Below, piece after piece: positions 1,540-34,393 of a stretch of DNA of 38,724 nucleotides; within the stretch, counting starts at the first letter, position 1; every line of letters starts with the position of its first letter. Below the pieces are notes generated by a model. The model was not told the origin of the DNA, searched no databases, and saw nothing but the letters and a program-made list of their open reading frames with translations. Where the stretch lies: NCBI GenBank assembly GCA_030613575.1, contig JAUWLP010000002.1:1-38724 (forward strand), given 5' to 3'. This DNA is from Desulfobacteraceae bacterium (lineage in GTDB: Bacteria > Desulfobacterota > Desulfobacteria > Desulfobacterales > UBA11574). The translations under genes were made by a program, and so were the position numbers.

Positions 1540-1706
1540 ATATGCATTGCGAATCAGGTCTGGGCCAGGGATAAACTCCACCGGAATTTATTGAGAAGTT
1601 GCCTCTAACGCTCGTAACTTACTAATATTACGGCCTGTTAATTCAACTTTTTTTGTATTTTGTGGCTTTTTGCGGCTATATCAACTTTCGAAAGGAGATA
1701 AAAGAA

Positions 1707-2693
1707 ATGATGCAAATTAAAAGATTTTTCAGATTGAGTTCCATTGTTGTAGTTGTACTTTTTATTTTGAATGGATCAGGTTTTGCGGCTGAAAAGGTGA
1801 GTAAAGTTATTCTCACAAGCCCTTTCTCACCCCTTGCCATGCCCATGGCCTATATCGTTGAAAACAATCTGCTTAAAAATGTGGCTAAAGATGTTGAACT
1901 GGTCATATGGAACACGCCGGACCAGTTAAGGGCCATGATAACGAAAGGCCAGGCGCATTTTGTTTCCATCCCCAGTAATGTTGCAAGCATCTTTTACAAT
2001 AAAGGTGTGCCGCTCAATCTGGTAAGGATCTCAATCTGGGGGGTATTTTATGTTATCAGCAGTGATACTTCTGTTAAATCCCTGTATGACCTGAAAGGTC
2101 AGGAGATCTATATCCCCTTTCGCGGGGACCAGCCCGATCTTATGTTTCAGACTGTGTGCCGGGCCCAGGGGCTGGATCCGTTTAAGGATTTTCATATACA
2201 GTATGTGAGCTCGCCCCTTGATATTACCATGAGCCTTTTGGCAGGCAAGATAAATAATGCATTTATGATAGAGCCGGGAGCTGCCATGGCCATTATGAAG
2301 GCAAAAAGGAAAGGGATGACGTTTAAGAGGGTCATCGATATTCAAAAAGAATGGGGCAGGGCAACAGGAGGGAGTCCGAGGTTCCCCAATGCCGGGGTTG
2401 TGGCCCTTCCTAATGTGCTGAAAAGCCCTGCGGTTGTGGATGCATTTCTGAAAGCCTATGATGCAGGCGTAAAATGGACCAACAAGAATCCCGGAGATGC
2501 CGCAATCCTGGCGGCGAAACATGTAAAAGGAGTAAATGCCGCGGCCTTTGAAGACGCATTAAAATATACGATTTTTGAATCTGTAAGCGGAAGGGATTCC
2601 AGAAAGGCGCTTGAAGTGATGTTCTCCAAATTCATGAAGCTGAACCCCAAATCTGTTGGCGGTAAGCTCCCTGATAAAGGGTTTTATTATTAG
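1707..2693 (+). CDS. ABC transporter substrate-binding protein, NMT1/THI5-like (NitT/TauT family), secreted (copy 1)
   Basis: AAAGGAG RBS lies 7-8 nt before ATG 1707; the track's TTG at 1653 is rejected. It has a signal peptide (MMQIKRFFRLSSIVVVVLFILNGSGFA). It is paralogous to 9776-10759, e.g. the shared C-terminus NPKSVGGKLPD. Confidence 0.85.
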   Translation: MMQIKRFFRLSSIVVVVLFILNGSGFAAEKVSKVILTSPFSPLAMPMAYIVENNLLKNVAKDVELVIWNTPDQLRAMITKGQAHFVSIPSNVASIFYNKGVPLNLVRISIWGVFYVISSDTSVKSLYDLKGQEIYIPFRGDQPDLMFQTVCRAQGLDPFKDFHIQYVSSPLDITMSLLAGKINNAFMIEPGAAMAIMKAKRKGMTFKRVIDIQKEWGRATGGSPRFPNAGVVALPNVLKSPAVVDAFLKAYDAGVKWTNKNPGDAAILAAKHVKGVNAAAFEDALKYTIFESVSGRDSRKALEVMFSKFMKLNPKSVGGKLPDKGFYY

Positions 2694-2706
2694 AATCGGC
2701 ATATCA

Positions 2707-3471
2707 ATGCCTGCCGTGAACTTACTAAATACCAAGACCCGTTATGGTCTTATGGGTGTATGCCTTTTTTTCTTGGCCTGGCAGGCGTTATCCACCATCT
2801 TTCATGAGATTATCATAGCTTCTCCAGCCGACACCCTTCTCAGCCTGATTGAGATGGTTCAGACGGTGGATTTCTGGAAGAATGTCGGAATCACCATTGG
2901 AAGATTCGGGTTGAGTCTCTTGTTTGGCAGCCTGGTTGGGTTTGTGCTGGGACTGGTAGCCGGTCTGAATAAAAAAATGAGATGGCTGTTTGAGCCCTTC
3001 CGCTGGTCCCTTATGACGATGCCCCCCGTTGTTCTTGTGGTGGTGAGCATGATCTGGTTCGGCATGGGAAGCATTCAGACCATCTTTGTCACCGCGCTTT
3101 TAATCATCCCCATTATATATGTAAATACCATTGAGGGGATAGAGGCGGTGGACGCAAGTATTCTGGAGATGGGAAGGGTCTACAAGGCCAATTCCCGGAT
3201 GCTTTTAAAAGAGATTTATCTTCCGGGAATCGGTGGGCCGGTACTTGCCGGTCTCACTCTTTCCGCAGGCCTGGGCATTAGAATAGTTGTTTTAGCGGAA
3301 CTTCTCGGGGCTTACAGCGGCATAGGGTATGAATTTTCTCTTGCAAGGACGAATCTGGACACGCCCGCTCTTTTTGCCTGGATCATGGTCTGCCTTTTTC
3401 TCGGTGGATTTGTTGATTTAGGTATCCTGAACCCCATAAGGAACCATATTATGAGATGGAAAGCAGAATGA
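2707..3471 (+). CDS. ABC transporter permease, NitT/TauT family (copy 1)
   Basis: Polytopic hydrophobic protein that aligns along its length with 10759-11541 (FEPFRWSLMTMPPVVLVVVSMIWFGMGS vs LEPFRWIMLSIPPVVVVVLAMLWFGMGS). ATG 2707 was chosen by alignment with the paralog N-terminus; the RBS is weak. Confidence 0.8.
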   Translation: MPAVNLLNTKTRYGLMGVCLFFLAWQALSTIFHEIIIASPADTLLSLIEMVQTVDFWKNVGITIGRFGLSLLFGSLVGFVLGLVAGLNKKMRWLFEPFRWSLMTMPPVVLVVVSMIWFGMGSIQTIFVTALLIIPIIYVNTIEGIEAVDASILEMGRVYKANSRMLLKEIYLPGIGGPVLAGLTLSAGLGIRIVVLAELLGAYSGIGYEFSLARTNLDTPALFAWIMVCLFLGGFVDLGILNPIRNHIMRWKAE

Positions 3472-4157
3472 TTGAGTTTGTAAGTGTATACAAGGCCTTT
3501 AACGGAAGACCAGTATTCAATCAAACGTCATTTCGCGTTCAGAAAAATGAGGTTGTTGGCTTGTTAGGGCGATCCGGAGTTGGCAAATCCACCATACTCA
3601 GGATGATCAGCGGCCTTACCAGCCCTGACTCCGGAACCGTGAAGGTTAACAGTTCAAGGATCGGATATATCTTCCAGGAACCCCGTTTAATTCCCTGGAA
3701 AACGGCGCGGGAAAACATATGTTTTGGTTTAAAAGCAATGGGGGTTAACTCTAAAGATGCAAAAGACATTGCCCTGGAATATATCGAGAAACTGGATTTA
3801 AAAGGCTTTGAAAATCATTATCCCAACCAGTTGAGTGGAGGAATGAGCCAAAGGGTGTCCATAGGCAGGGCCTTTGCGATTGGTCCTGATATTCTTCTTA
3901 TGGATGAACCTTTCAGCGCCCTTGACCTCGGGCTAAAAGATGCCCTGCTTGGAATCGTTCAAGAGATGCTGGCCCATCATCAATCCATGACCGTGCTTTA
4001 TGTCTCACACGATCCCGAAGAAGTTTCAAGGCTGGCAAAGCGGTTTTTGCTCTTAATCGACGGTGGTGTCATTCAGGAGTTTTCGCCAGGCCCGGACAGA
4101 TCATTTAAAAGAATGTTGCGTAAAAGATTTCGCAATAGAAATTTTAAGAACAGGTAA
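3468..4157 (+). CDS. ABC transporter ATP-binding protein (copy 1)
   Basis: ATGA start/stop overlap with the permease at 3468-3471. Motifs: Walker A GRSGVGKST, signature LSGGMSQRV, Walker B LLMDEPFSALD, H-loop VSHD. Confidence 0.9.
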   Translation: MIEFVSVYKAFNGRPVFNQTSFRVQKNEVVGLLGRSGVGKSTILRMISGLTSPDSGTVKVNSSRIGYIFQEPRLIPWKTARENICFGLKAMGVNSKDAKDIALEYIEKLDLKGFENHYPNQLSGGMSQRVSIGRAFAIGPDILLMDEPFSALDLGLKDALLGIVQEMLAHHQSMTVLYVSHDPEEVSRLAKRFLLLIDGGVIQEFSPGPDRSFKRMLRKRFRNRNFKNR

Positions 4158-4320
4158 CCGTTCATGGGTTCACGGTTCAGGGGTTCAGGGTTAGACTGAT
4201 GAAGGAAGGATTCGATTCTTACAATACATCAAACGAGCTTGCACTGAAGTTAAAAGTAAAAAGATGAAAATCGTGAAGTAATTAACCTCTGAACCGTGAA
4301 CCTTTGAACCGTGAACGGTT
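4156..4320. repeat. Inverted pair of 38-nt GTTCA-pentamer arrays flanking an 89-nt spacer
   Basis: Left arm is AACCGTTCATGGGTTCACGGTTCAGGGGTTCAGGGTTA (4156-4193). Right arm is TAACCTCTGAACCGTGAACCTTTGAACCGTGAACGGTT (4283-4320). Each arm has four GTTCA/TGAAC units separated by 2-3 nt. The element lies between the ATPase stop and the GTPase RBS. Confidence 0.6.
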
Positions 4321-4339: not shown

Positions 4340-5050
4340 ATGAAATTCATAACAGTGGCAGGTCCCCCTTCCTCTGGGAAGACCCTTGTGATAATCCATC
4401 TTATCAGGCTTTTGAAGGATGATTATTTAAAGGTGGTTGTGGGCAAGATTGACTGCCATGAAACAGCAGACGGAACACTCTTTAAGGAAAGGCTGAGGAT
4501 ACCGGTAGTAGTCGGGCGAAGTGATTATGTGTGCCCTGATCACTATGGTGTAGTGAATGCGGAAGAGATATTTAAATTTGGTGAATCACATGATGCGGAC
4601 ATAACTATCGTGGAAACTGCCGGCCTTTGTCACAGATGTGCACCGGCCATTATAGGCTGTATGGCTATCGCTGTTGTCGATAATGTCAGCGGCATTGATA
4701 CACCCAGAAAGATAGGTCCCATGCTTACAACAGCCGATGTGGTTGTAATAACCAAAGGGGATATGGTGTCCCAGGCAGAGCGGGAAGTTTTCAGAAGTAA
4801 TGTGCTGGAAGTTAATCCGGATGCAAAGACGGTTGAGCTAAACGGCCTGACAGGGATGGGTTCGCTTAACCTTAAACGAGTGGTACTGGATGCGCCGGAT
4901 ATAGATACCCTCACGGGCATGGAACTCAGACACGATATGCCTGCTGCCGTGTGTTCATACTGTGAAGGGGAAACTAAGATCGGTTCGGATTATCAAATGG
5001 GCAATATCATAAAAATGGATGTTAAAGAGGTTGAAAATGGATATCAATGA
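4340..5050 (+). CDS. G3E-family P-loop GTPase, HypB/UreG-like putative metallochaperone (copy 1)
   Basis: AGGAGG RBS precedes the start. Motifs: Walker A GPPSSGKT, G3E-type ExxG (VETAGL), NKxD-like ITKGD. Cys/His motifs are conserved with the paralog 7999-8682: IDC, CPDH, AGLCHRCAP, CSYCEGE. Confidence 0.75.
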   Translation: MKFITVAGPPSSGKTLVIIHLIRLLKDDYLKVVVGKIDCHETADGTLFKERLRIPVVVGRSDYVCPDHYGVVNAEEIFKFGESHDADITIVETAGLCHRCAPAIIGCMAIAVVDNVSGIDTPRKIGPMLTTADVVVITKGDMVSQAEREVFRSNVLEVNPDAKTVELNGLTGMGSLNLKRVVLDAPDIDTLTGMELRHDMPAAVCSYCEGETKIGSDYQMGNIIKMDVKEVENGYQ

Positions 5051-5828
5051 AATAAAAATTGTATCCGGCACTGATAAAAACGGCAATTCTGAATCCGTAG
5101 AAGAATTAACAATCAGAAAAGGAGATATTTTAGTCTTAGCCGGTCCTACAGGTTCAGGGAAAAGCCTGCTCTTATCTGACATAGAGCAACTGGCCAACGG
5201 TGATTCCCCATCCGGAAGGAGGGTGCTTGTTGACAATAAGGTCATGGACCCTTTCAGTATGCGAATAACCGCATGTCTATCACAGAACATGCATTTTGTG
5301 ATGGATCTTGATGTGGGCAGTTTTATAGGTCTACATGCTAAAAGCAGGAAAATTGAGACTAACAATACGGTAGAAAAGGTCCTGAAACAGGCAAATGACC
5401 TGGCAGGAGAACCTTTATCAGCAGATATGCATCTTGCGTCATTAAGTGGTGGGCAGTCAAGGGCCCTCATGATATCTGATGCCGCCCTTATCAGTAACGC
5501 GCCTGTGGTATTGATAGATGAGATTGAGAATGCCGGAATCAATAAAACCATGGGTATTCAGTTGCTTTCCACAGAGGGCAAGATGGTCTTAATTGCCACC
5601 CATGATCCCACCTTAATGCTTACTGCACAAAAGAGAATCATCATGAAGAACGGAGCCATGTTCAGGCTTATTCAATCGGATGACGTCGAGCGGAAGCACC
5701 TAAAATATTTTCTTGAAATAGACAGGGTCCTTGAAGGCTTCAGACACAGCTTGAGACATGGGAACAGGCTGGATGAAGAGACTTTAAAGAGATTAGTTGA
5801 ATTGGAGGGAGCTAATCATGAACAGTAA
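5037..5828 (+). CDS. Stand-alone ABC-type ATPase with no transmembrane partner domain (copy 1)
   Basis: AGAGG RBS before ATG 5037, which overlaps the GTPase stop by 14 nt. Motifs: Walker A GPTGSGKS, Q-loop LSQNMHF, signature LSGGQSRAL, Walker B VVLIDEIENAG, H-loop IATHDP. Confidence 0.8.
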   Translation: MDINEIKIVSGTDKNGNSESVEELTIRKGDILVLAGPTGSGKSLLLSDIEQLANGDSPSGRRVLVDNKVMDPFSMRITACLSQNMHFVMDLDVGSFIGLHAKSRKIETNNTVEKVLKQANDLAGEPLSADMHLASLSGGQSRALMISDAALISNAPVVLIDEIENAGINKTMGIQLLSTEGKMVLIATHDPTLMLTAQKRIIMKNGAMFRLIQSDDVERKHLKYFLEIDRVLEGFRHSLRHGNRLDEETLKRLVELEGANHEQ

Positions 5829-6690
5829 AAACAAAGTGTATATTTCCGTTCCGGTTAACATTGCCAGGAATATAACTATGGGCATAAAGGAAATCTGTCC
5901 GGATTCTGAGGTTTTTTCATCTTCTAAGAAATATTATGCCGATGATCTGGTATTTCTGGAAAACATAAAGGCAGGTAAATTAGAGGAAGTGCCGGATATC
6001 ATCGTCACAATCCGCCCAGAGATATTATGGGAGAAAAACTACCTGATTGAATCAGGATTCTTTGACAGCCAATACAGGTATAAGGTGGATAGTTTTATCG
6101 AATCTAAAGGCTTTTTAGATGAAAAGTGGATCTTAAAACCTGTCTTTATAATGCCGCTTATCATTTTTTTTAACAAAGGTGTCAAAAATCCGCCGGAGTC
6201 ATGGGAATCCCTCATGAAAGCCCGCTTTAAGGGAAAGATTCTCTGTACAAATGAAAACACTCCTCCCGCTTCTCTTTTCAGGCAATTTTATACCCATCAT
6301 TTTGGAGATGAAGGAAAGGATTTTGTGGATAACAGTGTTAATTACAGGGGGCTGCCCATAGACGTGAATATTGCGGTTGGAAAAGGGGAGTATGACATCG
6401 GAATTATGCCCATATCATTTGCTAAATTTTCAAGAGACAACAGCGCCGCTTTTTGCTGGCCACCTGAGGGCGCCCTTCCCCTTATGCAGGTGATGATAAT
6501 GAAAAATGGCTTTAGCGATGATTCCATGAAAGCAGCCGATTTTTTAATTTCAGAAAATGTGCAGCAGGTATTCAGCAAGAATGCAGGCTTTATACCGGTA
6601 ATCCCGAATGTTGCGCCGCCAGAAGAGTTCAAAAAAAACAATATGAACCTGTTATGGAAAGGCTGGGACTCCTTTATTGATATGGCGTAA
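5818..6690 (+). CDS. Signal-less protein tentatively of the type-2 periplasmic-binding-protein fold (copy 1)
   Basis: GGAGGGAG RBS before ATG 5818, with an 11-nt overlap with the upstream ATPase. There is no signal peptide. The C-terminal two thirds align by eye with 6750-7982 (WPPEGALPLMQVMIM vs WPEDGAIVSPIYML; LWKGWDSF vs QWIGWEFL). The CDS call is confident; the fold assignment is tentative. Confidence 0.55.
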   Translation: MNSKNKVYISVPVNIARNITMGIKEICPDSEVFSSSKKYYADDLVFLENIKAGKLEEVPDIIVTIRPEILWEKNYLIESGFFDSQYRYKVDSFIESKGFLDEKWILKPVFIMPLIIFFNKGVKNPPESWESLMKARFKGKILCTNENTPPASLFRQFYTHHFGDEGKDFVDNSVNYRGLPIDVNIAVGKGEYDIGIMPISFAKFSRDNSAAFCWPPEGALPLMQVMIMKNGFSDDSMKAADFLISENVQQVFSKNAGFIPVIPNVAPPEEFKKNNMNLLWKGWDSFIDMA

Positions 6691-6704
6691 CTACCTATGT
6701 TGTC

Positions 6705-6732
6705 AGGTTCAAAGTTCACGGTTCAGGGGTTA
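6705..6732. repeat. Single GTTCA-pentamer array sharing an identical 18-mer with 4168-4185
   Basis: Sequence is AGGTTCAAAGTTCACGGTTCAGGGGTTA. GTTCACGGTTCAGGGGTT at 6714-6731 equals 4168-4185 in the same orientation. It lies immediately upstream of the RBS of the 6750 gene. Confidence 0.55.
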
Positions 6733-6749
6733 AAGGAAAGGAGATAAAA

Positions 6750-7982
6750 ATGATTGAGGTGACTATGACTATTCGTTCGATCATCGAGCAGTACCCGGAA
6801 ACACGGGCTGTGTTTATTGCGAATGGACTCGATGATCTGGTCGACAAAAGAAATCTTGAAAAAGTCGGTGCTTTCCTGACCATTGAGTCCGCACTGAAGA
6901 TGAAGGAGAAGGATCTTGTGGCGTTTATGAATATGCTCTCAGAGCAAATTAGTTCAAACCACGATCGTATCGATATAACACTTGCGGAAGAAAAAAATGA
7001 GCAATTGGATGTAATCGGTCTTTTGCCGGTTTCGGTGCGTTTGCAGGTTTTGGAGACATTCGAAGCTCTTCGAGTTCGATTGCAGAAGGAAGAAGGCCTT
7101 TCTTTAGCCGGAAGATTCGCCGCAGCCCAGGAAGGCACTGACTGGGTTGCTGAGGCTTACGGCCAGGTTGAGGAGCCCCGAATGCTACCGGATATCTGTT
7201 TTTCAGCCGGTTTCGATTTCTTCTTTGCAAAGCCATTTACCGATCGGTTCATCAAATCAGGTGTTTTTAGAAAGCTTATGCCATGGACTGAAAATGAAGA
7301 TTTCCAGGGTCTCGGACTTCAGGATCCAAAAAGTAGATACTGTATTATAAGTGTTGTTCCAGCAGTATTTGTTGTTGACGAGCCAGCGCTTGAGGGTCGG
7401 TCTGTACCGCGAACCTGGGAAGATCTGCTTGGTAGTAGTTATGAAAGATCAATTGCAATGCCCGAGCGCAGTCTGGACATCCCAAGATCAATTCTGCTCA
7501 CCTTATATGCACGTTTTGGTGAAGAAGGAGTACGGTCTCTTGGCCGAAACACTGCAAGCCAGCTGCATCCTGCCCAGATGGTCAAGCAGATAAAATCAGC
7601 TGTAAAAGGTCGTCCAGCTGTGTCGGTGATGCCTTACTTTTTTTCAAGGACAGTAAACGAGGCAGAGGGAATAACTGTGATCTGGCCGGAAGACGGTGCC
7701 ATTGTCAGCCCAATCTACATGCTTGCAAAGTCTGATCCCGGGTTTTGCAGGGCCGACCCGCGTGTGGTCGAACGCGCTGCCGAACTTTTTTCAAGCCAGC
7801 AGATGGGAACAATTTTCACTAAAGGATACTTTCCTTCGCTTCATCCAAAGGTAAACAATGCCTTGCCGGATGAGGCCTCGTTTCAATGGATCGGCTGGGA
7901 ATTCTTAGAGGGGATGGATTCCGGGATTATACTCCCGCAGGTCTACAACCTGTTTGATGAAGAAATAGCCAGGACGGAATAG
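6750..7982 (+). CDS. Signal-less protein with a DUF1858-like N-terminal domain and a binding-protein-like body (copy 2)
   Basis: AAAGGAG RBS. The N-terminus IRSIIEQYPETRAVFIANGL...LTIESALKMKEKDL resembles the DUF1858/ScdA_N-type helical domain but lacks Cys. The remainder is paralogous to 5818-6690. No signal peptide. Confidence 0.55.
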   Translation: MIEVTMTIRSIIEQYPETRAVFIANGLDDLVDKRNLEKVGAFLTIESALKMKEKDLVAFMNMLSEQISSNHDRIDITLAEEKNEQLDVIGLLPVSVRLQVLETFEALRVRLQKEEGLSLAGRFAAAQEGTDWVAEAYGQVEEPRMLPDICFSAGFDFFFAKPFTDRFIKSGVFRKLMPWTENEDFQGLGLQDPKSRYCIISVVPAVFVVDEPALEGRSVPRTWEDLLGSSYERSIAMPERSLDIPRSILLTLYARFGEEGVRSLGRNTASQLHPAQMVKQIKSAVKGRPAVSVMPYFFSRTVNEAEGITVIWPEDGAIVSPIYMLAKSDPGFCRADPRVVERAAELFSSQQMGTIFTKGYFPSLHPKVNNALPDEASFQWIGWEFLEGMDSGIILPQVYNLFDEEIARTE

Positions 7983-7998: not shown

Positions 7999-8682
7999 AT
8001 GAGACTGATAACGGTTTCCGGCCCGCCCTCTTCGGGCAAAACAGCGGTTATTTGCAGGGTGATCGAGGCCCTGCGCCAGCAAGCGGTCAAGGTAGGCGTG
8101 GTGAAATTTGACTGTTTGTCCACGGAAGACGATGAGCGGTATAAAAGCATGGGTGTTTTGGTGCGTAAGGGACTCTCAGGTGCGCTTTGCCCGGACCATT
8201 TTTTTGTAAGCAATATTGAGGCCTGTTTTCATTGGGGTCTTGATGAAGGTATCGATATCCTGATCAGCGAAAGTGCAGGGTTGTGCAACCGGTGCTCCCC
8301 ACACATCAAGGATGTCATGTCTGTTTGTGTCATCGACAATCTGAGTGGCCAGAACACCCCGAAAAAGATTGGTCCAATGCTAAAATCTGCTGATATCGTG
8401 GTCATTACAAAGGGGGATATTGTAAGCCAGGCCGAGCGGGAGGTCTTTTCATTTCGCGTAAAGAACGTTAATCCCAGATCAACTACCATGCATGTCAACG
8501 GGCTTACCGGCCAGGGCGCTGAAGAACTGGCCAGGTTGTTCGCAGAAAGTTCGGATGTAGGAGGACTTGGTGAAAGGCAGTTGCGATTTGCCATGCCAAC
8601 CGCGCTGTGTTCTTACTGCCTGGGCGAAAAACGTATCGGAGAGGAATACCAAAAGGGAAATATCCGGAAAATGGATATTTGA
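7999..8682 (+). CDS. G3E-family P-loop GTPase, HypB/UreG-like putative metallochaperone (copy 2)
   Basis: AAGGAG RBS. Motifs: GPPSSGKT, ExxG (SESAGL), ITKGD. It carries the same Cys/His set as copy 1 (FDC, CPDH, AGLCNRCSP, CSYCLGE). Confidence 0.75.
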   Translation: MRLITVSGPPSSGKTAVICRVIEALRQQAVKVGVVKFDCLSTEDDERYKSMGVLVRKGLSGALCPDHFFVSNIEACFHWGLDEGIDILISESAGLCNRCSPHIKDVMSVCVIDNLSGQNTPKKIGPMLKSADIVVITKGDIVSQAEREVFSFRVKNVNPRSTTMHVNGLTGQGAEELARLFAESSDVGGLGERQLRFAMPTALCSYCLGEKRIGEEYQKGNIRKMDI

Positions 8683-8692: not shown

Positions 8693-9733
8693 TTGGAAGC
8701 AATTCGGTTTAATAACAACATTATCCGTCGTGAGGAAATCCTGAACATGGATACAGGCTCACTTCGGCAACGCCTTCCGGCCATAAACGATTTTTTTTCC
8801 TCCTTCGGGCTGACGGCGCCTGAAGATGGAACGACCATCAGTCATTTTTTACTTGAGCTTGATGCGGAGATCCTCAACGATATCGGTATGGAACGTGAGG
8901 CAATAAATGAGGTTTTTTTAGACTTTATAGAAGGAATGCTGGAAATACAAAAAACCTCTGGTTTCAAACTTGTCGAACTGACAATCATTGGGGGTCGTAA
9001 TAAGGACGGTAAGTCGGAAGAATTGAACCTTGAATTGCGTCCGAGTCAGATTATTTGCCTTGTGGGCCATACCGGTTCAGGAAAGAGCAGATTGCTTGCC
9101 GACATTGAATGGATGGCCAGGGGGGACACGCCAACTGGGCGGAGGATTTTGATCAACGGTGATATTCCTCCATCCTCATGGCGCCATTCCCATGAGCACC
9201 GGTTGGTGGCCCAGTTAACACAAAATATGAACTTTGTCATGGACGTTGCTGTAGATGAGTTTGTCAGGTTGCATGCGGAAAGCAGACTTGTCCAAAATGT
9301 GGAGGCAAAGACAAATCAGATTCTTTTAAAGGCAAACGATCTTGCAGGTGAGCCTTTTGCACCGGATACACCGGTGACCAGCCTGTCCGGTGGGCAGTCC
9401 CGTGCCTTGATGATTGCGGATATAGCCCTTTTGAGCGCCTCCCCCATTGTCCTCATTGACGAGATAGAAAATGCAGGCATCGACCGGAAGCGCGCCCTTG
9501 AATTACTTATAGACGAGGAGAAAATCGTTCTTATCGCCACCCATGATCCCATCCTGGCCTTAATGGGTGAAAAACGATTGATCCTGCGTAACGGCGGGGT
9601 TCACAAAATTATCAATACAACCCCTGTGGAAAGAAGAAATTTATCTAAGATTGAGGAATTGGATAAAAACTTTCTTGGTTTACGCAATCGTATACGAAAT
9701 GGAGAACTTATCGACTTTGAAATCGGATTGTAA
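8693..9733 (+). CDS. Stand-alone ABC-type ATPase with an N-terminal extension of about 100 aa (copy 2)
   Basis: Motifs: Walker A GHTGSGKS, LTQNMNF, LSGGQSRAL, IVLIDEIENAG, IATHDP. The start is uncertain. TTG 8693 has GAGG 8 nt upstream; the alternative is ATG 8747. The track start at 8567 overlaps the GTPase by 116 nt and is rejected. Confidence 0.7.
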   Translation: MEAIRFNNNIIRREEILNMDTGSLRQRLPAINDFFSSFGLTAPEDGTTISHFLLELDAEILNDIGMEREAINEVFLDFIEGMLEIQKTSGFKLVELTIIGGRNKDGKSEELNLELRPSQIICLVGHTGSGKSRLLADIEWMARGDTPTGRRILINGDIPPSSWRHSHEHRLVAQLTQNMNFVMDVAVDEFVRLHAESRLVQNVEAKTNQILLKANDLAGEPFAPDTPVTSLSGGQSRALMIADIALLSASPIVLIDEIENAGIDRKRALELLIDEEKIVLIATHDPILALMGEKRLILRNGGVHKIINTTPVERRNLSKIEELDKNFLGLRNRIRNGELIDFEIGL

Positions 9734-9775
9734 ATCGTATCTTTATTGAAAAAATTTTAGAAAGGAGAAAATGTC

Positions 9776-10759
9776 ATGAAAAAAATTTATCTAATTGTTG
9801 CTTTTCTACTCATGTTTTCCGTTCCTGTTTTGGCGCAGTCCAAAATGGAGAAACTGGTTTTAGCGGGCCCGAAATCGAGTGTGACTCACCCAATGGCGTA
9901 CATAATCGAGGCCGGCCTTATCAAAGATGTAGCCAAAGAGGTAAAGCTCATTATCTGGGATAATCCTGATCAGCTTCGCTCGCTTGTTGCCGGCGGTCAG
10001 GCCCATTTCTCAGCCGTGCCCAGTTACGTGGCGGCGAATTTTTATAATAAAGGGGTCCATGTCCGGCTATTGAATATATCGGCATGGGGCATTCTGTGGA
10101 TTGTCTCTTCCGATCCTGACGTCAAAACCATTGCCGATCTGAAAGGCGAAGAAATCGTCCTGACTTATCGGAGGGATATGCCTGATCTGGTACTTTCCAG
10201 CCTGGCACTGAAACAGGGCCTTGATCCGACCAGGGATTTTAAATTGCGTTATCTGCCGAACTTTCCGGCCGTATCCCAGGAAGTTGTAAGCGGCAGGGCC
10301 AAACACGCCCTTTTAGCCGAACCCCTTGTCTCGGTGTCCCTTCTAAAATCTTCCAGGATGAAAGGCAAAGCTCCGAAACTCTATCGGGCTGTTGATATTC
10401 AAAAAGAGTGGGGGCGGGTCTATAATACCGATTCTAAAATCCCCCAGGCCGGCATATGCGCCATGCCGGAGGTAGCTAAACAGCCTGAAACGGTAAAGGC
10501 GTTTCAGAATGCTTACAGGGACGCTATCGACTGGTGCAACAAGAACCCGAAAGAGGCCGGCAAGATCGTGGCTAAGTATATTCCAGGCCTAAAACCTGGT
10601 CCGGTTGCCACCGCGCTGAAAAACGCCGGCCTCGAATTCATCTCCGCCCATGACGCAAAGCCGGAGATCGAGCAATTTTATAATGTGCTAAAGTCTCTTA
10701 ACCCCGCAAAGATTGGCGGGAAACTGCCAGATGATTACTTTTACTGGAGTGACCGCTGA
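9776..10759 (+). CDS. ABC transporter substrate-binding protein, NMT1/THI5-like, secreted (copy 2)
   Basis: AAAGGAG RBS and signal peptide MKKIYLIVAFLLMFSVPVLA. Paralogous to 1707-2693. Confidence 0.85.
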   Translation: MKKIYLIVAFLLMFSVPVLAQSKMEKLVLAGPKSSVTHPMAYIIEAGLIKDVAKEVKLIIWDNPDQLRSLVAGGQAHFSAVPSYVAANFYNKGVHVRLLNISAWGILWIVSSDPDVKTIADLKGEEIVLTYRRDMPDLVLSSLALKQGLDPTRDFKLRYLPNFPAVSQEVVSGRAKHALLAEPLVSVSLLKSSRMKGKAPKLYRAVDIQKEWGRVYNTDSKIPQAGICAMPEVAKQPETVKAFQNAYRDAIDWCNKNPKEAGKIVAKYIPGLKPGPVATALKNAGLEFISAHDAKPEIEQFYNVLKSLNPAKIGGKLPDDYFYWSDR

Positions 10760-11541
10760 TGTCTTTATTCCATTGGCTGCGGAAAAAGCTGCTTTTTTTG
10801 ACCCGCGCAAATCTGTTTATCGCCATTGGTTTTATGCTGCTGCTGGCAGGATGGCAGGTGCTTTCCTTTTATACGCACGAAATTTTACTCGCATCTCCGG
10901 CCCAGGCGGCTTGCGCGCTATGGGGAATAATCGGAACTTCATATTTTAACGAGAATTTTCTTATAACGTTATGGCGTCTTTTCTTCGGCATCGTATCGGG
11001 CGGGCTAATTGGGTTTGTTCTCGGGACCGCGGCAGGGCTTAATGAAGATATAAAGAATATTTTAGAACCTTTTCGCTGGATAATGTTGAGCATCCCGCCG
11101 GTGGTTGTGGTAGTGCTGGCCATGCTCTGGTTCGGCATGGGATCTAAAATGGTGGCCTTTATCACATCCGTACTGGTAGCCCCGATTGTGTATGTCAACA
11201 CCGTCAAGGGGATTGAAATGGTTGATGAAAAACTGGTGGAAATGGCGCGTCTGTACAAATTCGGTTTTGTGATGCGCATAAAAGACGTCTATACACCGGC
11301 GATCATCGGGCCGCTTGGCGCGGCCATGGTGCTGATAACCTGCATGGGCGCACGAGTGGTTATACTGGCGGAACTTATGGGCGCCAACGACGGTATCGGA
11401 TACGCCCTGGGCGTGACCCGGTCCAATCTGGACGTTCCCCAGCTTTTCGCATGGGTGCTGGTCACTCTCGGCATTGTGTCGGTGTTTGAGTTTATACTTC
11501 TTCGTCCCGTAGAAAAACATTTCATACGGTGGAAGTTATGA
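10759..11541 (+). CDS. ABC transporter permease, NitT/TauT family (copy 2)
   Basis: TGATG stop/start overlap at 10757-10761. Polytopic protein paralogous to 2707-3471. Confidence 0.85.
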   Translation: MSLFHWLRKKLLFLTRANLFIAIGFMLLLAGWQVLSFYTHEILLASPAQAACALWGIIGTSYFNENFLITLWRLFFGIVSGGLIGFVLGTAAGLNEDIKNILEPFRWIMLSIPPVVVVVLAMLWFGMGSKMVAFITSVLVAPIVYVNTVKGIEMVDEKLVEMARLYKFGFVMRIKDVYTPAIIGPLGAAMVLITCMGARVVILAELMGANDGIGYALGVTRSNLDVPQLFAWVLVTLGIVSVFEFILLRPVEKHFIRWKL

Positions 11542-12239
11542 GTCCGGTGATTTCTTTTGAAAACGTAGTGAAAGAATACGGCGGGCGGAAGGTGATTTCC
11601 GGTCTTTCATTTCAGATTCACAGCCGGGAGGTTGTAGGGTTGCTGGGACAAAGCGGCATGGGAAAGACCACCATTTTAAAAATTATCGCCGGCCTTGAAA
11701 TGCCAAGTGACGGAGATATCAAGGTGATCGCAGAACGTGTCGGTTATGTCTTCCAGGAACCCAGGCTCTTACCCTGGAGGACAGCGCTGGAAAACGTGAT
11801 GCTGCCCATGATAGCGCTTGGGATGAATAAAAAACAGGCCGGAGAAAAGGCCAATCACTTTCTTGGTGAAATGGAACTTTCTGAATTCACCCATTATTAT
11901 CCGTCGCAATTGTCCGGCGGGATGATGCAAAGGGTTTCCCTTGCCAGGGCCTTTGCCACTGAACCTGAAGTGTTGCTTCTCGATGAACCGTTCAGTGCCC
12001 TGGATCTTCAAATGAAAGATGCGATTTTGTCAATGATTGAAGAACGGCTTTTGGTTCAGCCAATGACAGTTTTGTATGTCTCTCATTCACAGGAAGAGGT
12101 AATGCGGATTTCAAACAGGATTTTCATGATGTCTTCCGGGAGCAAACTGGATGAATTGCCGATACAGCACTGCCGGGCGTTCAGGGCTGGATGTAAAAAA
12201 GCGTTTTTAAAATGGACAAAACAAATCGGATCAAATTAG
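11538..12239 (+). CDS. ABC transporter ATP-binding protein (copy 2)
   Basis: ATGA overlap at 11538-11541, the same junction geometry as copy 1. Motifs: GQSGMGKTT, LSGGMMQRV, LLLDEPFSALD, VSHS. Confidence 0.9.
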   Translation: MSPVISFENVVKEYGGRKVISGLSFQIHSREVVGLLGQSGMGKTTILKIIAGLEMPSDGDIKVIAERVGYVFQEPRLLPWRTALENVMLPMIALGMNKKQAGEKANHFLGEMELSEFTHYYPSQLSGGMMQRVSLARAFATEPEVLLLDEPFSALDLQMKDAILSMIEERLLVQPMTVLYVSHSQEEVMRISNRIFMMSSGSKLDELPIQHCRAFRAGCKKAFLKWTKQIGSN

Positions 12240-14968: not shown

Positions 14969-15766
14969 ATGGAAGAACAATTAAGCGGTATTCCGGAAAC
15001 CTTGCTTATACCTCTCTGGGCAAGAGCTGTTGAAACAAAACGCTCTACACCCATCATTAATGATATTAGAGCAGTGGAGATGGTAGAGCGCATTGAGTAT
15101 GACTTTTCAAAATTTGACAAGGCATGGATGTCGCAGGTTGGCGTTGCCATTAGAACCAAACTCTTAGATGAGGCGACAATGGCCTTTATTAACAAATACC
15201 CTGATTCGGTAATTATTAATATTGGAGCTGGTCTTGATACACGCTTTTTTAGGGTGGATAACGATAGAATCCGTTGGTATGAATTAGACTTGCCTGAATC
15301 AATTCACATCAGAAAAAAATTCTTCAATGAAACTGATAGATACAGAATGATTGCTAAATCTGTGTTTGATTATTCCTGGATTAAGCAGATTGATACCTTT
15401 ACCGATTCAGTTTTAATCATTGCAGAAGGCGTATTGATGTACTTTGAAGAAGATGATATTAAAAGCCTGATGGCCAGGATGGTTGTTGCATTCCCACATG
15501 CAGAGATGCTTTTTGAAATGATGACACCTACATTAGCAAAAAGGAGTAAACAGCATGATGCTGTTAGTAAAACTGATGCTGAGTTCAGATGGGGAATTAC
15601 CAGTGGAAAAGAGATGGAAGCCTTAAGCACTAAAATCAAGTATATTGAAGAATGGAATTACTTTGATTATCATCAGGATAGATGGCGTTGGGTGCGCTGG
15701 TTGGCTTTGATTCCAGCGTTTAAGAATCGCTTTAATAATAGAATTGTTCATTTATGCTTTATCTGA
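14969..15766 (+). CDS. Class I SAM-dependent O-methyltransferase (leucine carboxyl methyltransferase/TcmP-like family)
   Basis: N-terminal IPETLLIPLWARA and the SAM-binding motif INIGAGLDTRFFR are typical of this family. Confidence 0.75.
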   Translation: MEEQLSGIPETLLIPLWARAVETKRSTPIINDIRAVEMVERIEYDFSKFDKAWMSQVGVAIRTKLLDEATMAFINKYPDSVIINIGAGLDTRFFRVDNDRIRWYELDLPESIHIRKKFFNETDRYRMIAKSVFDYSWIKQIDTFTDSVLIIAEGVLMYFEEDDIKSLMARMVVAFPHAEMLFEMMTPTLAKRSKQHDAVSKTDAEFRWGITSGKEMEALSTKIKYIEEWNYFDYHQDRWRWVRWLALIPAFKNRFNNRIVHLCFI

Positions 15767-16032: not shown

Positions 16033-16596
16033 ATGCCTAATTTTTTTACCAATCCATTTTTATGGATAAGCGTCTATTTAATCGGATTTATCATAGCGAT
16101 AATAATACTCTGTCTACCACGACTATTTACCGGGGTCGAAAAGAAATTACCGAAAGTGCTTTTAAAGGTATATATCCTGTCTGTATTTATAGCCCCTCCA
16201 ATGGCTTTACCGTTTACTAAAGGGCCTAAAATAGCGATTCCAGCATATGTTTCACTGAGTTTAGGGATATTTCTGCTGGTGATGAATTTTGTTATCAAGA
16301 TGTTGGCTCAAAAGGAAATTGGTGCGCTTCCGGGCATAAAAAGAAAAGCGAAACTGATTACAACAGGCATTTACGGAATTGTGAGAAATCCTTTATATAT
16401 GAGTAATGGTTTGTTAGCAATCGGAATGGCTGTTCTTTTAAAATCAATGTATGCCCTTATTTTTTCGGTTCCTTATTCTCTCTCTTATCTGCTCATTATA
16501 TATTTTGAAGAAAAGGATCTTATGAAAAAATATGGAAACGAATATCAGGAGTATATGAAGAAGGTTCCTTACAGAATTATTCCCAGGCTATTTTAA
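16033..16596 (+). CDS. Isoprenylcysteine carboxyl / phospholipid methyltransferase-family membrane protein
   Basis: Multi-pass membrane protein with GIYGIVRNPLYMSNGLLAIG and the C-terminal EEKDLMKKYGNEYQEYMKKVP block. Confidence 0.75.
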   Translation: MPNFFTNPFLWISVYLIGFIIAIIILCLPRLFTGVEKKLPKVLLKVYILSVFIAPPMALPFTKGPKIAIPAYVSLSLGIFLLVMNFVIKMLAQKEIGALPGIKRKAKLITTGIYGIVRNPLYMSNGLLAIGMAVLLKSMYALIFSVPYSLSYLLIIYFEEKDLMKKYGNEYQEYMKKVPYRIIPRLF

Positions 16597-17303: not shown

Positions 17304-17534
17304 ATGATACCTTTAGGTTTACTCGAAGTCGGAGAAGTGGGAGTGGTTCAAGATATTACAGGCGGAATTGGTTTTATCAGTCGGATATCGGCCACCGGTT
17401 TTACTCAAAACGCCGAAATTACCATGTTACGGAATTGGAAACGGGGACCCGTGCTGGTATTTATCCGGGATACCCAAATGGCGCTGGGTCGCGGCGAAGC
17501 TGAAAAAATCATCGTAAGGAGAAAAAAAATATGA
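17304..17534 (+). CDS. feoA: Ferrous iron transport protein A
   Basis: GAGGAG RBS. It is a 76-aa SH3-like FeoA (LLEVGEVGVVQDITGG). ATGA overlap with feoB. Confidence 0.9.
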   Translation: MIPLGLLEVGEVGVVQDITGGIGFISRISATGFTQNAEITMLRNWKRGPVLVFIRDTQMALGRGEAEKIIVRRKKI

Positions 17535-19585
17535 ACAAGTCAACATTGAAATCAGTACAAAATGCCAATACTGTCGCCCTGGCAGGACAGCCCAATACCG
17601 GGAAATCCACCATTTTTAACAGGCTTACCGGATCGAAGCAACATGTTGGAAATTGGCCTGGCAAAACAGTAGAGAAAAAAGAAGGCGCCTTTAAATATAG
17701 CGGTCAATCTTATAAACTGGTTGATTTACCCGGAACTTACAGTCTAACCGCGAACTCGCTTGAGGAGATAATCTCCAGGGATTTTATCATCAAAGAACAG
17801 CCCGATGTTTTAATTGTAGTAGTTGATGCTTCGCAGTTAGAACGTACTCTCTATCTTGTGGCTGAGACTGCCATGTTGTGGACTAAAATAATTGTCGCTT
17901 TAAATATGATGGATATTGCCGAAAGACAAGGCCGAGCGCTTATTACTGAAACCATGGGGAAAAAGATGGGCGTAAAGGTTGTTCCCATGATCGCGTCAAA
18001 AAATAAGGGAATTCCGGAGCTTCTTGAGGCAATTAAAGAATGTGCCGATAGCGGCAAACCAGAGAGAAAACCAGCGCAACAGATACTTGAAGGAGATGCT
18101 CTCGCGCTGGTAAAAAAGGTCAAGCTAATAATCAAAGGCTGTGTTCCTTCACCTTATTTAGAGGAATGGACAGCGCTTAAGCTTCTGGAAGGTGATGAAG
18201 AAATTAGCGGAATAATGAGAAACAGGTTGGAACCTGCCAAGTGGCAGGAAATAGATAGTTTGGTAAATGATAACAGTGTGTTACTAGTGACTGGTTCGAA
18301 GTATGAATGGATTCAAAAAATCATATCTTCAAGCAAGCAACAGCCTGGTAGAGAAAAAACACTGGCCAGACAGAACAAGTTTGACAAAATCGCTACTCAT
18401 CCTGTGTTAGGAAAGTTTGCTGCCTTAGGAATACTGTTGTTCGCGATAATCGCTGCCATGATCGTTGGTTTCCCTCCTGCGATGGCGGTTATGAAGGTAA
18501 TGCCCAAAGTTGCCGAAGGAACACGGACCCTGCTGGTATCCACTCCCGTCTGGTTTAGCTCTATGCTGGCTGATGGAGTTATTATTGGGGTTGGTATAGC
18601 AACAGCGCTCTTTTTCTTTTTAATGGCGGTGTTTTTAGTGGTGGGATTTTTAGAAGACGTGGGATATTTACCGCGTCTGGCTTATGTTTTCGATCCTTTT
18701 ATGCAGCGTTTGGGGTTGTATGGAAAATCATTTATGCCTTTTTTAATGAGCCTTTCCTGTAATATTGCGGGGGTATTGGGAACCCGTGTTGTCGATTCCT
18801 GGAGGCAGCGTTTTATTACTTTGGTAATGTCTCCTATTATCCCCTGTTTGGCTATTTGGGGTGTCGTCGCTTTTATTGGCACTGTTTTCTTTGGAGCAAA
18901 GACTCCACTGGTTGTTGTGGCCCTTCTGATAGTGATAGTATTTCATCTGATTATTACTTCTTTCCTGTTGCGGCATATTGTGGTTAAGGGGGATCGTGCC
19001 GGACTGATTATGGATCTGCCTCCCTATCATAAACCCAACATCAAGACAATCTGGGGTTATGCCTGGATGAATGGAAAAGCCTTTCTAAAAAGGGGCTTTA
19101 CTCTGATTGCCCTGGTATCTTTTGTCGTCTGGCTGCTTTCTTATTTTCCCGATGGTAACATTGAAACCAGCTTTTTAGCTTCAACTGGAAAGTTCTTAAA
19201 TCCGATTGGAGAATTGATGGGCTTTGACTGGAGGTTGATGGTTGCCCTGATTGTGGCCATGGCATCAAAGGAAGCCTCGCTTGCCGCCATTGCCGTTCTT
19301 TTCGGCATCGGGCAAAAGTTCACTTCCGTCACCGGGATGATAGGAGCAACCGGGATTTACAAACAGGAAGCGCTGGGATCGATACTGGTACAGACCATCA
19401 GTCCAGCAGCAGCTTTGGCATTTATATTTGCTTTAACTTTCTCCATTCCCTGCATAGGAACGATGGGAGCGTTTTATTCCGAGACAAAGTCGCTCAAATG
19501 GACGGCCGGTGCTTCGGTATATTACACAGTATCCAGCCTGGTTGCCGGGATTCTTGTTTACAATATCAGCTTGTTATTTTTTTAG
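17531..19585 (+). CDS. feoB: Ferrous iron transport protein B
   Basis: N-terminal G domain (VALAGQPNTGKSTIFNRLTG, DLPGTYSL, NMMD) followed by a polytopic membrane domain. Confidence 0.95.
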   Translation: MNKSTLKSVQNANTVALAGQPNTGKSTIFNRLTGSKQHVGNWPGKTVEKKEGAFKYSGQSYKLVDLPGTYSLTANSLEEIISRDFIIKEQPDVLIVVVDASQLERTLYLVAETAMLWTKIIVALNMMDIAERQGRALITETMGKKMGVKVVPMIASKNKGIPELLEAIKECADSGKPERKPAQQILEGDALALVKKVKLIIKGCVPSPYLEEWTALKLLEGDEEISGIMRNRLEPAKWQEIDSLVNDNSVLLVTGSKYEWIQKIISSSKQQPGREKTLARQNKFDKIATHPVLGKFAALGILLFAIIAAMIVGFPPAMAVMKVMPKVAEGTRTLLVSTPVWFSSMLADGVIIGVGIATALFFFLMAVFLVVGFLEDVGYLPRLAYVFDPFMQRLGLYGKSFMPFLMSLSCNIAGVLGTRVVDSWRQRFITLVMSPIIPCLAIWGVVAFIGTVFFGAKTPLVVVALLIVIVFHLIITSFLLRHIVVKGDRAGLIMDLPPYHKPNIKTIWGYAWMNGKAFLKRGFTLIALVSFVVWLLSYFPDGNIETSFLASTGKFLNPIGELMGFDWRLMVALIVAMASKEASLAAIAVLFGIGQKFTSVTGMIGATGIYKQEALGSILVQTISPAAALAFIFALTFSIPCIGTMGAFYSETKSLKWTAGASVYYTVSSLVAGILVYNISLLFF

Positions 19586-19659: not shown

Positions 19660-20145
19660 ATGAAAACAAAATCTATGATATCAACATTTCTTCTTTTGAA
19701 TCCATTTAAAAGAGGGATGTTTGAATGGATTATTCTTGTAGGAACAGGAATTTGTGGATTGAAATTATCTTGGCATAATTTTTCTATTTTTCCAGTTTCA
19801 AATATTTTTGGTGGTTTTCTAGTACTTTTTGCGTTCCTATTTCACTGGTGGGCAGAAAAAGATCATAAGCAAGCTCATGAACGATCAGATAGTATTGAAA
19901 TGATTGTAAACTCTGGTGTCTATTCAAAGATCCGCCATCCTCTATATCTTAGCCTTATTGTTTTAAATCTTGGAATTGCTCTTTCATTTGGTGTGCTGAT
20001 TACCTTAATATTAGCGCTGTTAACAGTAATTCACTGGGGTGCCACTTCATATAAAGAAGAGCAATTACTGCTGCAAAGATTTCAGGATGAATACACACAA
20101 TACAAAGAATCAGTTCGATGGCGGATGATTCCAGGTATATTCTAA
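19660..20145 (+). CDS. Isoprenylcysteine carboxyl / phospholipid methyltransferase-family membrane protein (second copy)
   Basis: Contains GVYSKIRHPLYLSLIVLNLGIAL and the C-terminal EEQLLLQRFQDEYTQYKESV block. Confidence 0.75.
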   Translation: MKTKSMISTFLLLNPFKRGMFEWIILVGTGICGLKLSWHNFSIFPVSNIFGGFLVLFAFLFHWWAEKDHKQAHERSDSIEMIVNSGVYSKIRHPLYLSLIVLNLGIALSFGVLITLILALLTVIHWGATSYKEEQLLLQRFQDEYTQYKESVRWRMIPGIF

Positions 20146-26676: not shown

Positions 26677-26768
26677 AAGTTTCCTTGTTTAAATTTCCAC
26701 CCAATGTTTAAATCAATAAACCACCTGATGCGTTCAAAAAGTCGATATCAGGTAAAAGGCGAATAGAT

Positions 26769-27191: not shown

Positions 27192-27247
27192 GGTACCTCG
27201 CTTAATTGTTTTGGGCGTATATACTCTTCTCTCCCAAACGGATTTAT

Positions 27248-27615: not shown

Positions 27616-27658
27616 TATTTATCATTTCTCAGGAGATGAGAGTAACCGCACCTAATTC

Positions 27659-34300: not shown

Positions 34301-34393
34301 TACATTCCTCCTTGAGACCTCTGCAAAACGTTTCTTTTTGCCCGATTGCATTATAAAGAGACTTGAGCTTATACCTGCTGTGTGTCTCAGTTT

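Follow-up and report, generated by a model that had tools for sequence, protein, structure and literature searches.

Two G3E GTPases in a Desulfobacteraceae metal-handling island belong to a separate clade that is paired with a soluble ABC-type ATPase

The window analysed here, a metagenomic stretch of 38,724 nucleotides from a Desulfobacteraceae bacterium (assembly GCA_030613575.1, contig JAUWLP010000002.1, positions 1 to 38,724), carries two genes for GTPases of the G3E superfamily, called GTP1 and GTP2 in the following. An earlier note, made by a model from the sequence without database searches, had singled out this pair for a distinctive set of Cys and His residues and had proposed a separate G3E subfamily with a multi-Cys metal or Fe-S site. 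Each GTPase gene lies in a compact cluster together with genes for an ATP-binding cassette (ABC) ATPase and a protein with the fold of a substrate-binding protein (SBP). The two clusters are referred to as the type 1 and the type 2 module.

4340 to 5050, + strand: GTP1, G3E GTPase of the new clade, type 1 (236 residues; open reading frame and Pfam PF02492 at 41.9 bits)
5037 to 5828, + strand: soluble ABC-type ATPase, partner of GTP1 (263 residues; PF00005 only; the gene call of the source contig starts at 5037)
5818 to 6690, + strand: short cytoplasmic SBP_bac_6 protein of type 1 (290 residues; PF13343 at 71.9 bits; gene call)
6750 to 7982, + strand: fusion of DUF1858 and SBP_bac_6, first gene of type 2 (410 residues; PF08984 at 38.7 and PF13343 at 222.5 bits)
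7999 to 8682, + strand: GTP2, G3E GTPase of the new clade, type 2 (227 residues; open reading frame and PF02492 at 47.5 bits)
8747 to 9733, + strand: long soluble ABC-type ATPase, partner of GTP2 (328 residues; PF00005; N-terminal extension of ~80 residues)

Both GTPase reading frames turned out to be real, and their translations carry the Walker A sequence GPPSSGKT, the Glu-type ExxG, and the ITKGD motif that the earlier note had described. In GTP1 the motifs lie at residues 8-15 (GPPSSGKT), 37-39 (IDC), 65-68 (CPDH), 91-102 (VETAGLCHRCAP), 137-141 (ITKGD), and 205-211 (CSYCEGE), and GTP2 has the same set with the variants FDC, SESAGLCNRCSP, and CSYCLGE. The two proteins are paralogs, with 51% identity across 228 residues (BLASTP). 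PF02492 (CobW/HypB/UreG) was the only Pfam domain above its cut-off (20.7 bits) in either protein, the extra matches of GTP2 being weak generic P-loop families under theirs. Proteins of Sulfurimonas, Arcobacteraceae, and Vibrio rank among the nearest relatives of GTP1 at 81-83% identity, and GTP2 orthologs score 320-372 bits across ~50 loci.

Conservation was evaluated by aligning three sets of homologs with a profile of the family. The first comprised 118 close homologs and the second 84 that came from genome loci, and the third was made up of 28 full-length distant sequences, each representing a 50%-identity cluster and sharing 29-50% identity with GTP1. C65, C97, and C205 are kept in 100% of the sequences in all three sets, while C100 and C208 are each present in 27 of the 28 distant representatives and H68 in 24 of them. 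P66, D67, R99, and P102 are near-invariant in the family alignment too. The nucleotide-binding motifs are similarly well kept: in Walker A, G8, G13, and K14 are 100% conserved and T/S15 nearly so, and the ExxG residues E92 (28/28) and G95 (27/28) hold among distant members and are both at 100% in close ones. The TKGD variant of the G4 motif is kept essentially without exception in close members and somewhat relaxed in distant ones (T138 26/28; K139 20/28, with R in five; D141 24/28). Conservation of the Cys/His set is far above chance. The earlier note had named six Cys and one His, and loss of these positions among homologs as a result that would speak against it; five of the Cys and the His hold at 29-50% identity, but C39 of the IDC motif is kept in only 18/28 distant homologs (109/118 close, 79/84 locus-derived). 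A further Cys, C107, was found in GTP1 and not in GTP2. Because C39 is not universal and C107 is variable among homologs, the robust core consists of five Cys and one His (C65, H68, C97, C100, C205, and C208).

Alignment with reference proteins placed C65 in the column of the Cys in the CH motif of HypB, the CPH motif of UreG, and the CxCC motif of COG0523, so that CPDH indeed occupies the metal-motif segment of HypB and UreG, as had been claimed. C65-P66 aligns with the Cys-Pro of the UreG motif with the His shifted by one residue, and relative to the CH Cys of HypB the His of the family comes three residues later. Counted from the ExxG glycine, C97 and C100 are at positions +2 and +5 and flank the column of the third-ligand Cys of HypB (ENVGNLVCP). 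The earlier view of the Cys pair after ExxG as foreign to HypB consequently needs amending: a single Cys at this place is a HypB feature, and only its doubling to CxxC is new. The last ~45 residues with C205-S-Y-C208-x-G-E had a counterpart in no reference protein, in line with the claim that CSYCxGE is foreign to HypB, UreG, CobW, and MeaB, and from the alignment the C-terminal CxxC tail appears to be specific to the family.

A 2024 review counts four known families of G3E metallochaperones, namely UreG, HypB, MeaB, and COG0523 (PMC11672702). GTP1 and GTP2 are members of the superfamily by Walker A, ExxG, the [NT]KxD motif in the form TKGD, the CPDH motif, and the PF02492 score. The scores of the two proteins against the equivalog models were 38.9 and 60.1 bits for HypB (TIGR00073; cut-off 121.2), 35.7 and 38.4 bits for UreG (TIGR00101; cut-off 204.2), and 16.5 and 20.3 bits for MeaB/ArgK (TIGR00750; cut-off 240.75), and neither the GCxCC motif nor the CobW_C domain, the hallmarks of COG0523, was found in either of them by Pfam search and alignment. 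A bootstrapped neighbour-joining tree with capped distances was then used to place the family among E. coli HypB, YjiA, YeiR, and ArgK, three plasmid HypB, and four plasmid UreG proteins; this tree is crude, with 11 references and no maximum-likelihood method. The family was monophyletic in 95% of the replicates and lay outside the clades of HypB (100%), UreG (82%), and COG0523 (100%), and a grouping of HypB with the family occurred in only 10%. The branching order among the G3E clades was not settled by the tree. An AlphaFold2 model of GTP1 (pLDDT 85.4, pTM 0.87) found its nearest solved folds in HypB (2hf8, 2wsm, 4lps) and UreG (4hi0, 5xkt), at TMq 0.62-0.65 and 19-23% identity, and no closer solved structure was found. 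Source databases name the proteins 'GTP-binding protein' or 'hypothetical protein', give generic COG text, and once use 'UreG'; 'Ni2+-binding GTPase involved in maturation of urease and hydrogenase' was also met at JGI/NCBI. No published description of the clade or its gene module was found in the literature searched. The clade of GTP1 and GTP2 is a distinct, widespread, and unnamed fifth G3E lineage beside HypB, UreG, COG0523, and MeaB. The subfamily proposed in the earlier note, for which a phylogeny had been suggested as a check, is borne out by the scores under the HypB, UreG, and MeaB cut-offs, the 95% clade, the lack of a closer structure, and a unique neighbourhood.

This neighbourhood is fixed. 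The open reading frames of 81 non-redundant loci were searched with the window proteins, and loci with enough flanking sequence were taken as testable. In type 1 modules the GTPase gene is followed by a short soluble ABC ATPase (~265 residues) and then a short SBP_bac_6 protein (~290 residues), while in type 2 modules the DUF1858-SBP_bac_6 fusion precedes the GTPase and a long ABC ATPase (~335 residues) follows it. The ATPase gene came directly after the GTPase gene in 77/77 testable cases (27/27 for type 1 and 50/50 for type 2), and an SBP_bac_6 gene adjoined in 72/72 (23/23 for type 1; 49/49 for type 2, upstream of the GTPase). Module genes overlap or abut. In the window the overlaps are 14 nucleotides between the end of the GTP1 gene and the ATPase gene and 11 nucleotides between the ATPase and short SBP genes, and GAGGAAA precedes the ATG of the long ATPase at 8747. 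Two database proteins are outright fusions of GTPase and ATPase (P0123, 613 residues; P0126, 509 residues). The partner ATPases have no permease domain and the SBP proteins no signal peptide. Each GTPase is part of a fixed soluble module with a dedicated, permease-less ABC-type ATPase, and the two bacterial and methanogen module types described here also include a cytoplasmic SBP-fold protein.

For the partner ATPase, the PDB yielded generic ABC ATPases only (CmpC, 41 bits) and the best NCBIfam matches were generic transporter ATPases at 42-47 bits. A single-sequence PDB search with the DUF1858-SBP protein gave no match, and a profile search gave weak relatives only (PhnS-like, cFbpA, PotD, and P5PA), which bind 2-aminoethylphosphonate, Fe3+, polyamine, and pyridoxal phosphate and do not discriminate the ligand. 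Four Trp residues are conserved in both SBP types.

Relatives of GTP1 are numerous and mostly found in anaerobes. Up to 5374 clusters at 90% identity match GTP1 at E<=1e-5, an upper figure that was not screened for weak HypB or UreG matches, while an exhaustive search of 1.84 billion 50%-identity representatives returned 192 at E<=1e-10, many of them fragments. With each species represented by a single genome, relatives were found in at least 582 species, archaea included. The groups represented are Campylobacterota, Firmicutes, Desulfobacterota, Cloacimonadota, Spirochaetes, Deferribacteres, and methanogens, with carriers such as Sulfurimonas, Arcobacteraceae, Vibrio, Peptococcaceae, Syntrophomonas, Clostridium, Peptostreptococcus, Desulfosarcina, Geobacter, and Desulfuromonas, as well as Fermentibacteria, Methanospirillum, Methanolliviera, Fusobacterium, and members of Cloacimonadota, Spirochaetes, and Deferribacteres. 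Selenocysteine (an in-frame UGA) was considered for fragments that start at ExxG or end near the Cys motifs and was discarded; these fragments resemble frameshifted assemblies or ordinary alternative starts.

Even at 31-40% identity, members are found beside an ATPase of the family seen in the two modules, although no SBP protein is encoded there. The ATPases of these deep branches score 170-212 bits against the soluble ATPases of the window and 14-18 bits against its transporter ATPases. Because the deep branches keep the ATPase without the SBP protein, the conserved core is the pair of GTPase and ABC ATPase. Several of these loci bring in an Fe-S domain or a radical SAM protein: an archaeal contig has an ABC ATPase gene followed by a GTPase fused to the PF04060 Fe-S domain (P0166), the same domain is also fused in P0135, and at the P0131 locus an ABC ATPase and a GTPase are followed by a PF04060-domain protein. 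The P0142 locus reads GTPase, radical SAM, GTPase, ABC ATPase, and in P0143 a radical SAM gene follows the GTPase. Distant members also occur in clusters of cobW, radical SAM (~440 residues), cobW, and ABC ATPase genes (L098:3806-7233 and L105:182-2177), of which the uncharacterised radical SAM protein has its best matches to HxsC4 and MoaA, far under cut-off.

The surroundings of the two module types differ. Among type 1 loci with wide flanks, an NMT1-type importer was present in 9/14, Peripla_BP_2/FecCD genes in 5/14, and a SAM methyltransferase in 7/14; TonB-dependent receptors lie near the modules of Vibrio and Desulfosarcina, and the hybrid cluster protein Hcp adjoined none of 22 type 1 modules. 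Fur boxes, scored as matches to a 19-mer consensus of which ~1% of background regions reach 15/19, were found at 16/19 or better upstream of 5/25 type 1 operons (in Vibrio, Sulfurimonas, Arcobacteraceae, Peptococcaceae, and Syntrophomonas) versus 0/45 type 2 operons. Zur and NikR boxes did not rise above background upstream of 70 operons. From this context, type 1 modules would be iron-starvation genes linked to importers. In Desulfosarcina, corrinoid-type Peripla_BP_2/FecCD genes lie within the cluster, and in Desulfosarcina variabilis a fusion of a radical SAM (AmmeMemoRadiSam-like) protein with Peripla_BP_2 is encoded directly upstream of the type 1 GTPase (L001:8158-9984), with a TonB-dependent receptor, DUF364/DUF4213, and an O-methyltransferase in the same cluster. 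The Vibrio module has TP_methylase in its surroundings. Rfam elements were absent from the window, and in seven related loci the only one was a cobalamin riboswitch, located before the Vibrio cbiM and not before the module.

Type 2 modules recurrently neighbour Hcp (Prismane, 570 bits), regulators of the Rrf2 and Crp/Fnr types, and a small cupin. The typical order on one strand is Rrf2 or Crp, an optional cupin, the DUF1858-SBP fusion, GTPase, ATPase, an optional Cys-rich protein of 80 residues, and Hcp. Hcp was encoded within 4.5 kb downstream at 12/36 type 2 loci and a regulator upstream at 17/42, and an NMT1 plus permease importer was near 0/27. The 80-residue protein (two CxxC and CH; example L030:8245-8487) belongs to no Pfam or NCBIfam family, is encoded directly 3' of the long ATPase in 24 loci, and often stands just 5' of hcp; it is absent from the module region of the window, where 9733-9776 leaves no room for it, the rest of the window not having been searched. 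The HcpR2 operator was taken as GTAACnnnnGTTAC, as defined by Rodionov et al. (PMC1274295). It was matched at 9/10 or better in 6/48 type 2 upstream regions, three of them perfect and all six in Clostridia, against a background of 0.73% of regions. Type 2 modules would, from this company, be nitric-oxide/Hcp response genes. DUF1858 is presumably related to ScdA_N, the N-terminal domain of the di-iron repair proteins RIC/YtfE/ScdA. In Fusobacterium vincentii pSB055A (L089, NZ_CP084075.1) genes for DUF6162, two ZnuA proteins, and an ABC ATPase come after the type 2 module; this 2.1 Mb record is filed as a plasmid, is evidently a chromosome, and is almost unannotated in PLSDB.

The window itself is a metal-handling island in which both module types stand side by side, each flanked by a NitT/TauT-type ABC importer.

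1653 to 4157, + strand: first NitT/TauT-type ABC importer (NMT1-like SBP 1653-2693, permease 2656-3471, ATPase 3456-4157)
9776 to 12239, + strand: second importer of the NitT/TauT ABC type, 3' of the type 2 module (SBP 9776-10759, permease 10759-11541, ATPase 11529-12239)
4156 to 4320, unstranded: inverted GGTTCA heptad arrays upstream of GTP1 (arms 4156-4193 and 4283-4320, ~90 nucleotides apart)
6703 to 6733, + strand: a further copy of the GGTTCA heptad array, immediately 5' of the type 2 module
17304 to 19585: feoA and feoB (by family matches)

The first importer was recognised by Pfam matches to NMT1/Phosphonate-bd and by NCBIfam matches of the SsuA-family and SaoP/SsuC-like type, all under cut-off, and the second by its open reading frames and NMT1/Phosphonate-bd. 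The permease and ATPase at 2656-4157 have their best or strong NCBIfam matches to the SaoP/SaoA models, again under cut-off. The inverted repeat upstream of GTP1 spans 38-44 nucleotides with 71-88% complementarity. The sequence GTTCACGGTTCA occurs five times in the window versus 0.16 expected, and a further GGTTCA array lies at 37258-37269; the arrays may be a shared, lineage-specific operator or small repeat element. An LCM-type methyltransferase gene precedes feoA-feoB and two small membrane methyltransferase-like genes (PEMT/ICMT/DUF1295) bracket them (14969-15766, 16033-16596, 17304-19585, and 19660-20145 for the whole set), which is unusual company for a ferrous iron transporter. The right half holds an ArsP-type permease, MarR, a P-type ATPase, DUF4198, and the second of two Peripla_BP_2 proteins of the window (25501-29587 and 33491-35374, both on the - strand), and the open reading frames at 24715-25086 and 35708-36544 have no family match.

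Against this background, the two clusters very probably represent a distinct G3E metal-handling module. A putative multi-Cys metal or Fe-S site is plausible and consistent with the data, because the residues are near-invariant and some distant members carry PF04060 or lie beside it. The best overall reading, namely that the clade is a fifth G3E lineage and works on iron or Fe-S clusters, with metal and client taken from gene context, appeared to me evenly poised between right and wrong. For the cargo taken by itself, I regard iron or an Fe-S cluster as a tentative assignment that falls a little short of even. The most specific version is doubtful at present: a dedicated iron/Fe-S G3E metallochaperone, conserved from archaea to Vibrio, in which GTPase and ABC ATPase, joined in bacteria by an SBP-fold adaptor, would together load or repair iron centres when triggered by iron starvation (Fur) or nitric oxide damage (HcpR/Rrf2). 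Candidate clients of such a machine are the Hcp hybrid cluster and radical SAM enzymes.

In HypB and UreG, GTP-dependent dimerisation puts the metal-site residues at the subunit interface, and the metal is released on hydrolysis. By homology, the GTPase of the present family may likewise dimerise on GTP and could hold its metal at the interface by C65/H68, at the CH/CPH position, and the switch-II residues C97/C100. The C205xxC208 tail may complete a tetra-Cys or Fe-S site with C97/C100, or serve as a hand-over arm. Uptake or release of the cargo would then be driven by GTP hydrolysis coupled to the ATPase, which would add a second nucleotide-driven step. Since the short SBP protein lacks classic metal ligands, the SBP ligand may be organic, and the SBP-fold protein could act as an organic-ligand binder or as an adaptor. 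Type 1 modules would pass imported or scarce iron to clients, and type 2 modules would provide iron centres or restore damaged ones, among them perhaps the hybrid cluster of Hcp.

Several observations weigh against the iron or Fe-S reading or limit its base. The neighbour-joining tree is crude, and the C-terminal tail of GTP1 (residues 201-236) was modelled with only moderate pLDDT of 53-74. The Cys-rich putative site is equally suited to Zn, Ni, Co, or Cu(I), and the residues conserved in the short SBP protein are Trp, Pro, Ser, and Gln. Of the 25 type 1 loci, just the five mentioned above had a detectable Fur box, and the best Fur-like site of the window, GCGAATGATAATGGTTCTA at 1370-1388, upstream of the first NitT/TauT importer, reaches 13/19, which is within background and no evidence alone; the source organism may have another Fur motif. 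On the type 2 side, Hcp adjoins only about one third of the loci, hcp is absent from the window, and no HcpR motif stands before either module there, the 60-nucleotide region ahead of the type 2 module (6750) included. The Fusobacterium module adjoins ZnuA-type genes, and the Vibrio module lies near CbiMQ and the cobalamin riboswitch.

Zinc, cobalt, or another non-iron metal has to be reckoned with because of these last two neighbourhoods, and the GTPases would then be chaperones like the Zur-regulated COG0523 proteins (ZigA/ZNG1/CobW) and would re-allocate such a metal when it is scarce. The logic is the same as elsewhere in the superfamily and all-Cys sites suit Zn; the DUF6162, ZnuA, and ABC ATPase genes after the Fusobacterium module, the CbiMQ, TP_methylase, and riboswitch of Vibrio, and the corrinoid-type genes of Desulfosarcina would find an explanation. 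The lack of Zur and NikR boxes together with the enrichment of Fur boxes, the absence of the CxCC motif and CobW_C domain, and the links to Hcp, Rrf2, the Fe-S domain, and radical SAM proteins, which point to iron, nevertheless make this explanation improbable.

On a similar footing stands the proposal that type 2 modules are specialised in maturing or repairing the hybrid [4Fe-2S-2O] cluster of Hcp, much as CooC serves the related carbon monoxide dehydrogenase (CODH), with type 1 as a paralog recruited to another client. E. coli makes active Hcp and is not known to encode G3E genes beyond the classical four (the clade was not looked for in its genome), which counts against such a dedicated role. 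In Cloacimonadota and Clostridia the type 2 module immediately precedes hcp on the same strand, and HcpR2-type sites are found upstream. Hcp and CODH also share the Prismane fold, and CODH maturation needs a P-loop NTPase (PMC6006190). The proposal is rendered just as improbable by the limited share of type 2 loci with Hcp (12/36), its absence from the window, and the archaeal and other deep branches in contexts without Hcp, and it leaves type 1 unexplained.

A purely structural zinc site in a regulatory or transport-coupling NTPase pair, which would gate an importer or sense an SBP ligand and not transfer metal, would fit C97xxC100 and C205xxC208 as a classic Zn(Cys)4 pattern, an SBP-fold partner that keeps an aromatic cage and not metal ligands, and the frequent position of modules beside importers. 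C65/H68 sit exactly at the transferable-metal position of HypB and UreG, though, type 2 modules usually have no importer (the 0/27 above), and archaeal and deep-branch pairs have neither SBP nor importer, so that this account appears slightly less probable still.

The explanation that the pair are plain nickel chaperones serving hydrogenase or urease, as divergent orthologs of HypB or UreG, draws on the automatic names (Ni2+-binding GTPase, 'Urease accessory protein UreG'), on HypB and UreG being the best family and fold matches, and on the resemblance of CPDH to the UreG CPH motif, and is very improbable given scores two to six times under the equivalog cut-offs, a separate clade at 95% bootstrap, no NikR boxes, partners that are an ABC ATPase and an SBP protein and not HypA or UreEFD, and the lack of any HypA/C/D or UreC/D/F homolog in 84 loci (up to 10 kb on each side) or the window. 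HypA/C/D were searched by phmmer with E. coli queries in loci L001-L084 and the window, and the UreC/D/F queries were partial, which limits their sensitivity. Methylmalonyl-CoA mutase homologs were likewise absent from the loci and the window.

The family can be set beside several known systems. It resembles HypB, which inserts Ni into [NiFe]-hydrogenase, in the G3E fold, Walker A, ExxG, the Cys of the CH column, a Cys after ExxG, and a similar G-domain length; it differs from HypB by CPDH in place of CH, the extra switch-II Cys that makes a CxxC, TKGD for NKxD, the 45-residue CxxC tail, the obligatory ABC ATPase partner, and the absence of hypA/C/D neighbours. UreG, which inserts Ni into urease, shares the G3E fold and the aligned Cys-Pro of CPH and gives the best pairwise identity (~25%), but has neither a Cys after ExxG nor a C-terminal CxxC, and the family has no ure genes nearby. 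The COG0523 proteins (CobW, YjiA, YeiR, ZigA, and ZNG1) are likewise G3E GTPases, have a Cys motif in the equivalent place and a link to a metal-starvation regulator (Zur for COG0523 versus Fur boxes for type 1), and offer the closest functional analogy in the re-allocation of a scarce metal. They are ~18% identical to the family, fall into a separate clade, and have another regulator and other partners, and the family lacks their CxCC and CobW_C.

Outside the G3E superfamily, NifH, Nbp35/ApbC/Mrp, and CooC are dimeric SIMIBI NTPases in which Cys residues of the switch-II area hold an interface metal or [4Fe-4S] cluster coupled to the nucleotide. This arrangement would resemble the use proposed here for C97/C100; the proteins are MinD/Mrp-type ATPases, and no sequence relation to the family was detected beyond the P-loop. 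The RIC/YtfE/ScdA proteins likewise sit with Hcp and nitric-oxide-responsive regulators, as type 2 modules do, but the module has no hemerythrin di-iron domain. SufC is a soluble ABC ATPase in Fe-S assembly, the role proposed for the partner ATPase, which is however not a SufC ortholog and has no SufB/D partners.

A widespread fifth clade with its own invariant ligand set and an obligatory ABC ATPase would extend the four-family view of G3E metallochaperones, points to a previously unrecognised two-NTPase mechanism of metal delivery, and corrects the misleading automatic names 'UreG' and 'Ni2+-binding GTPase for urease and hydrogenase'. The carriers include Fusobacterium, Treponema, relatives of Clostridium, methanogens, and sulfate reducers, which gives the family medical as well as environmental reach. 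Should iron or an Fe-S cluster be the cargo, the allocation of scarce iron in anaerobes, the rebuilding of iron centres damaged by nitric oxide, and the maturation or repair of the Hcp hybrid cluster would become testable. In that case the clade would do for iron what the Zur-regulated COG0523 chaperones do for zinc, a role so far assigned to no G3E family.

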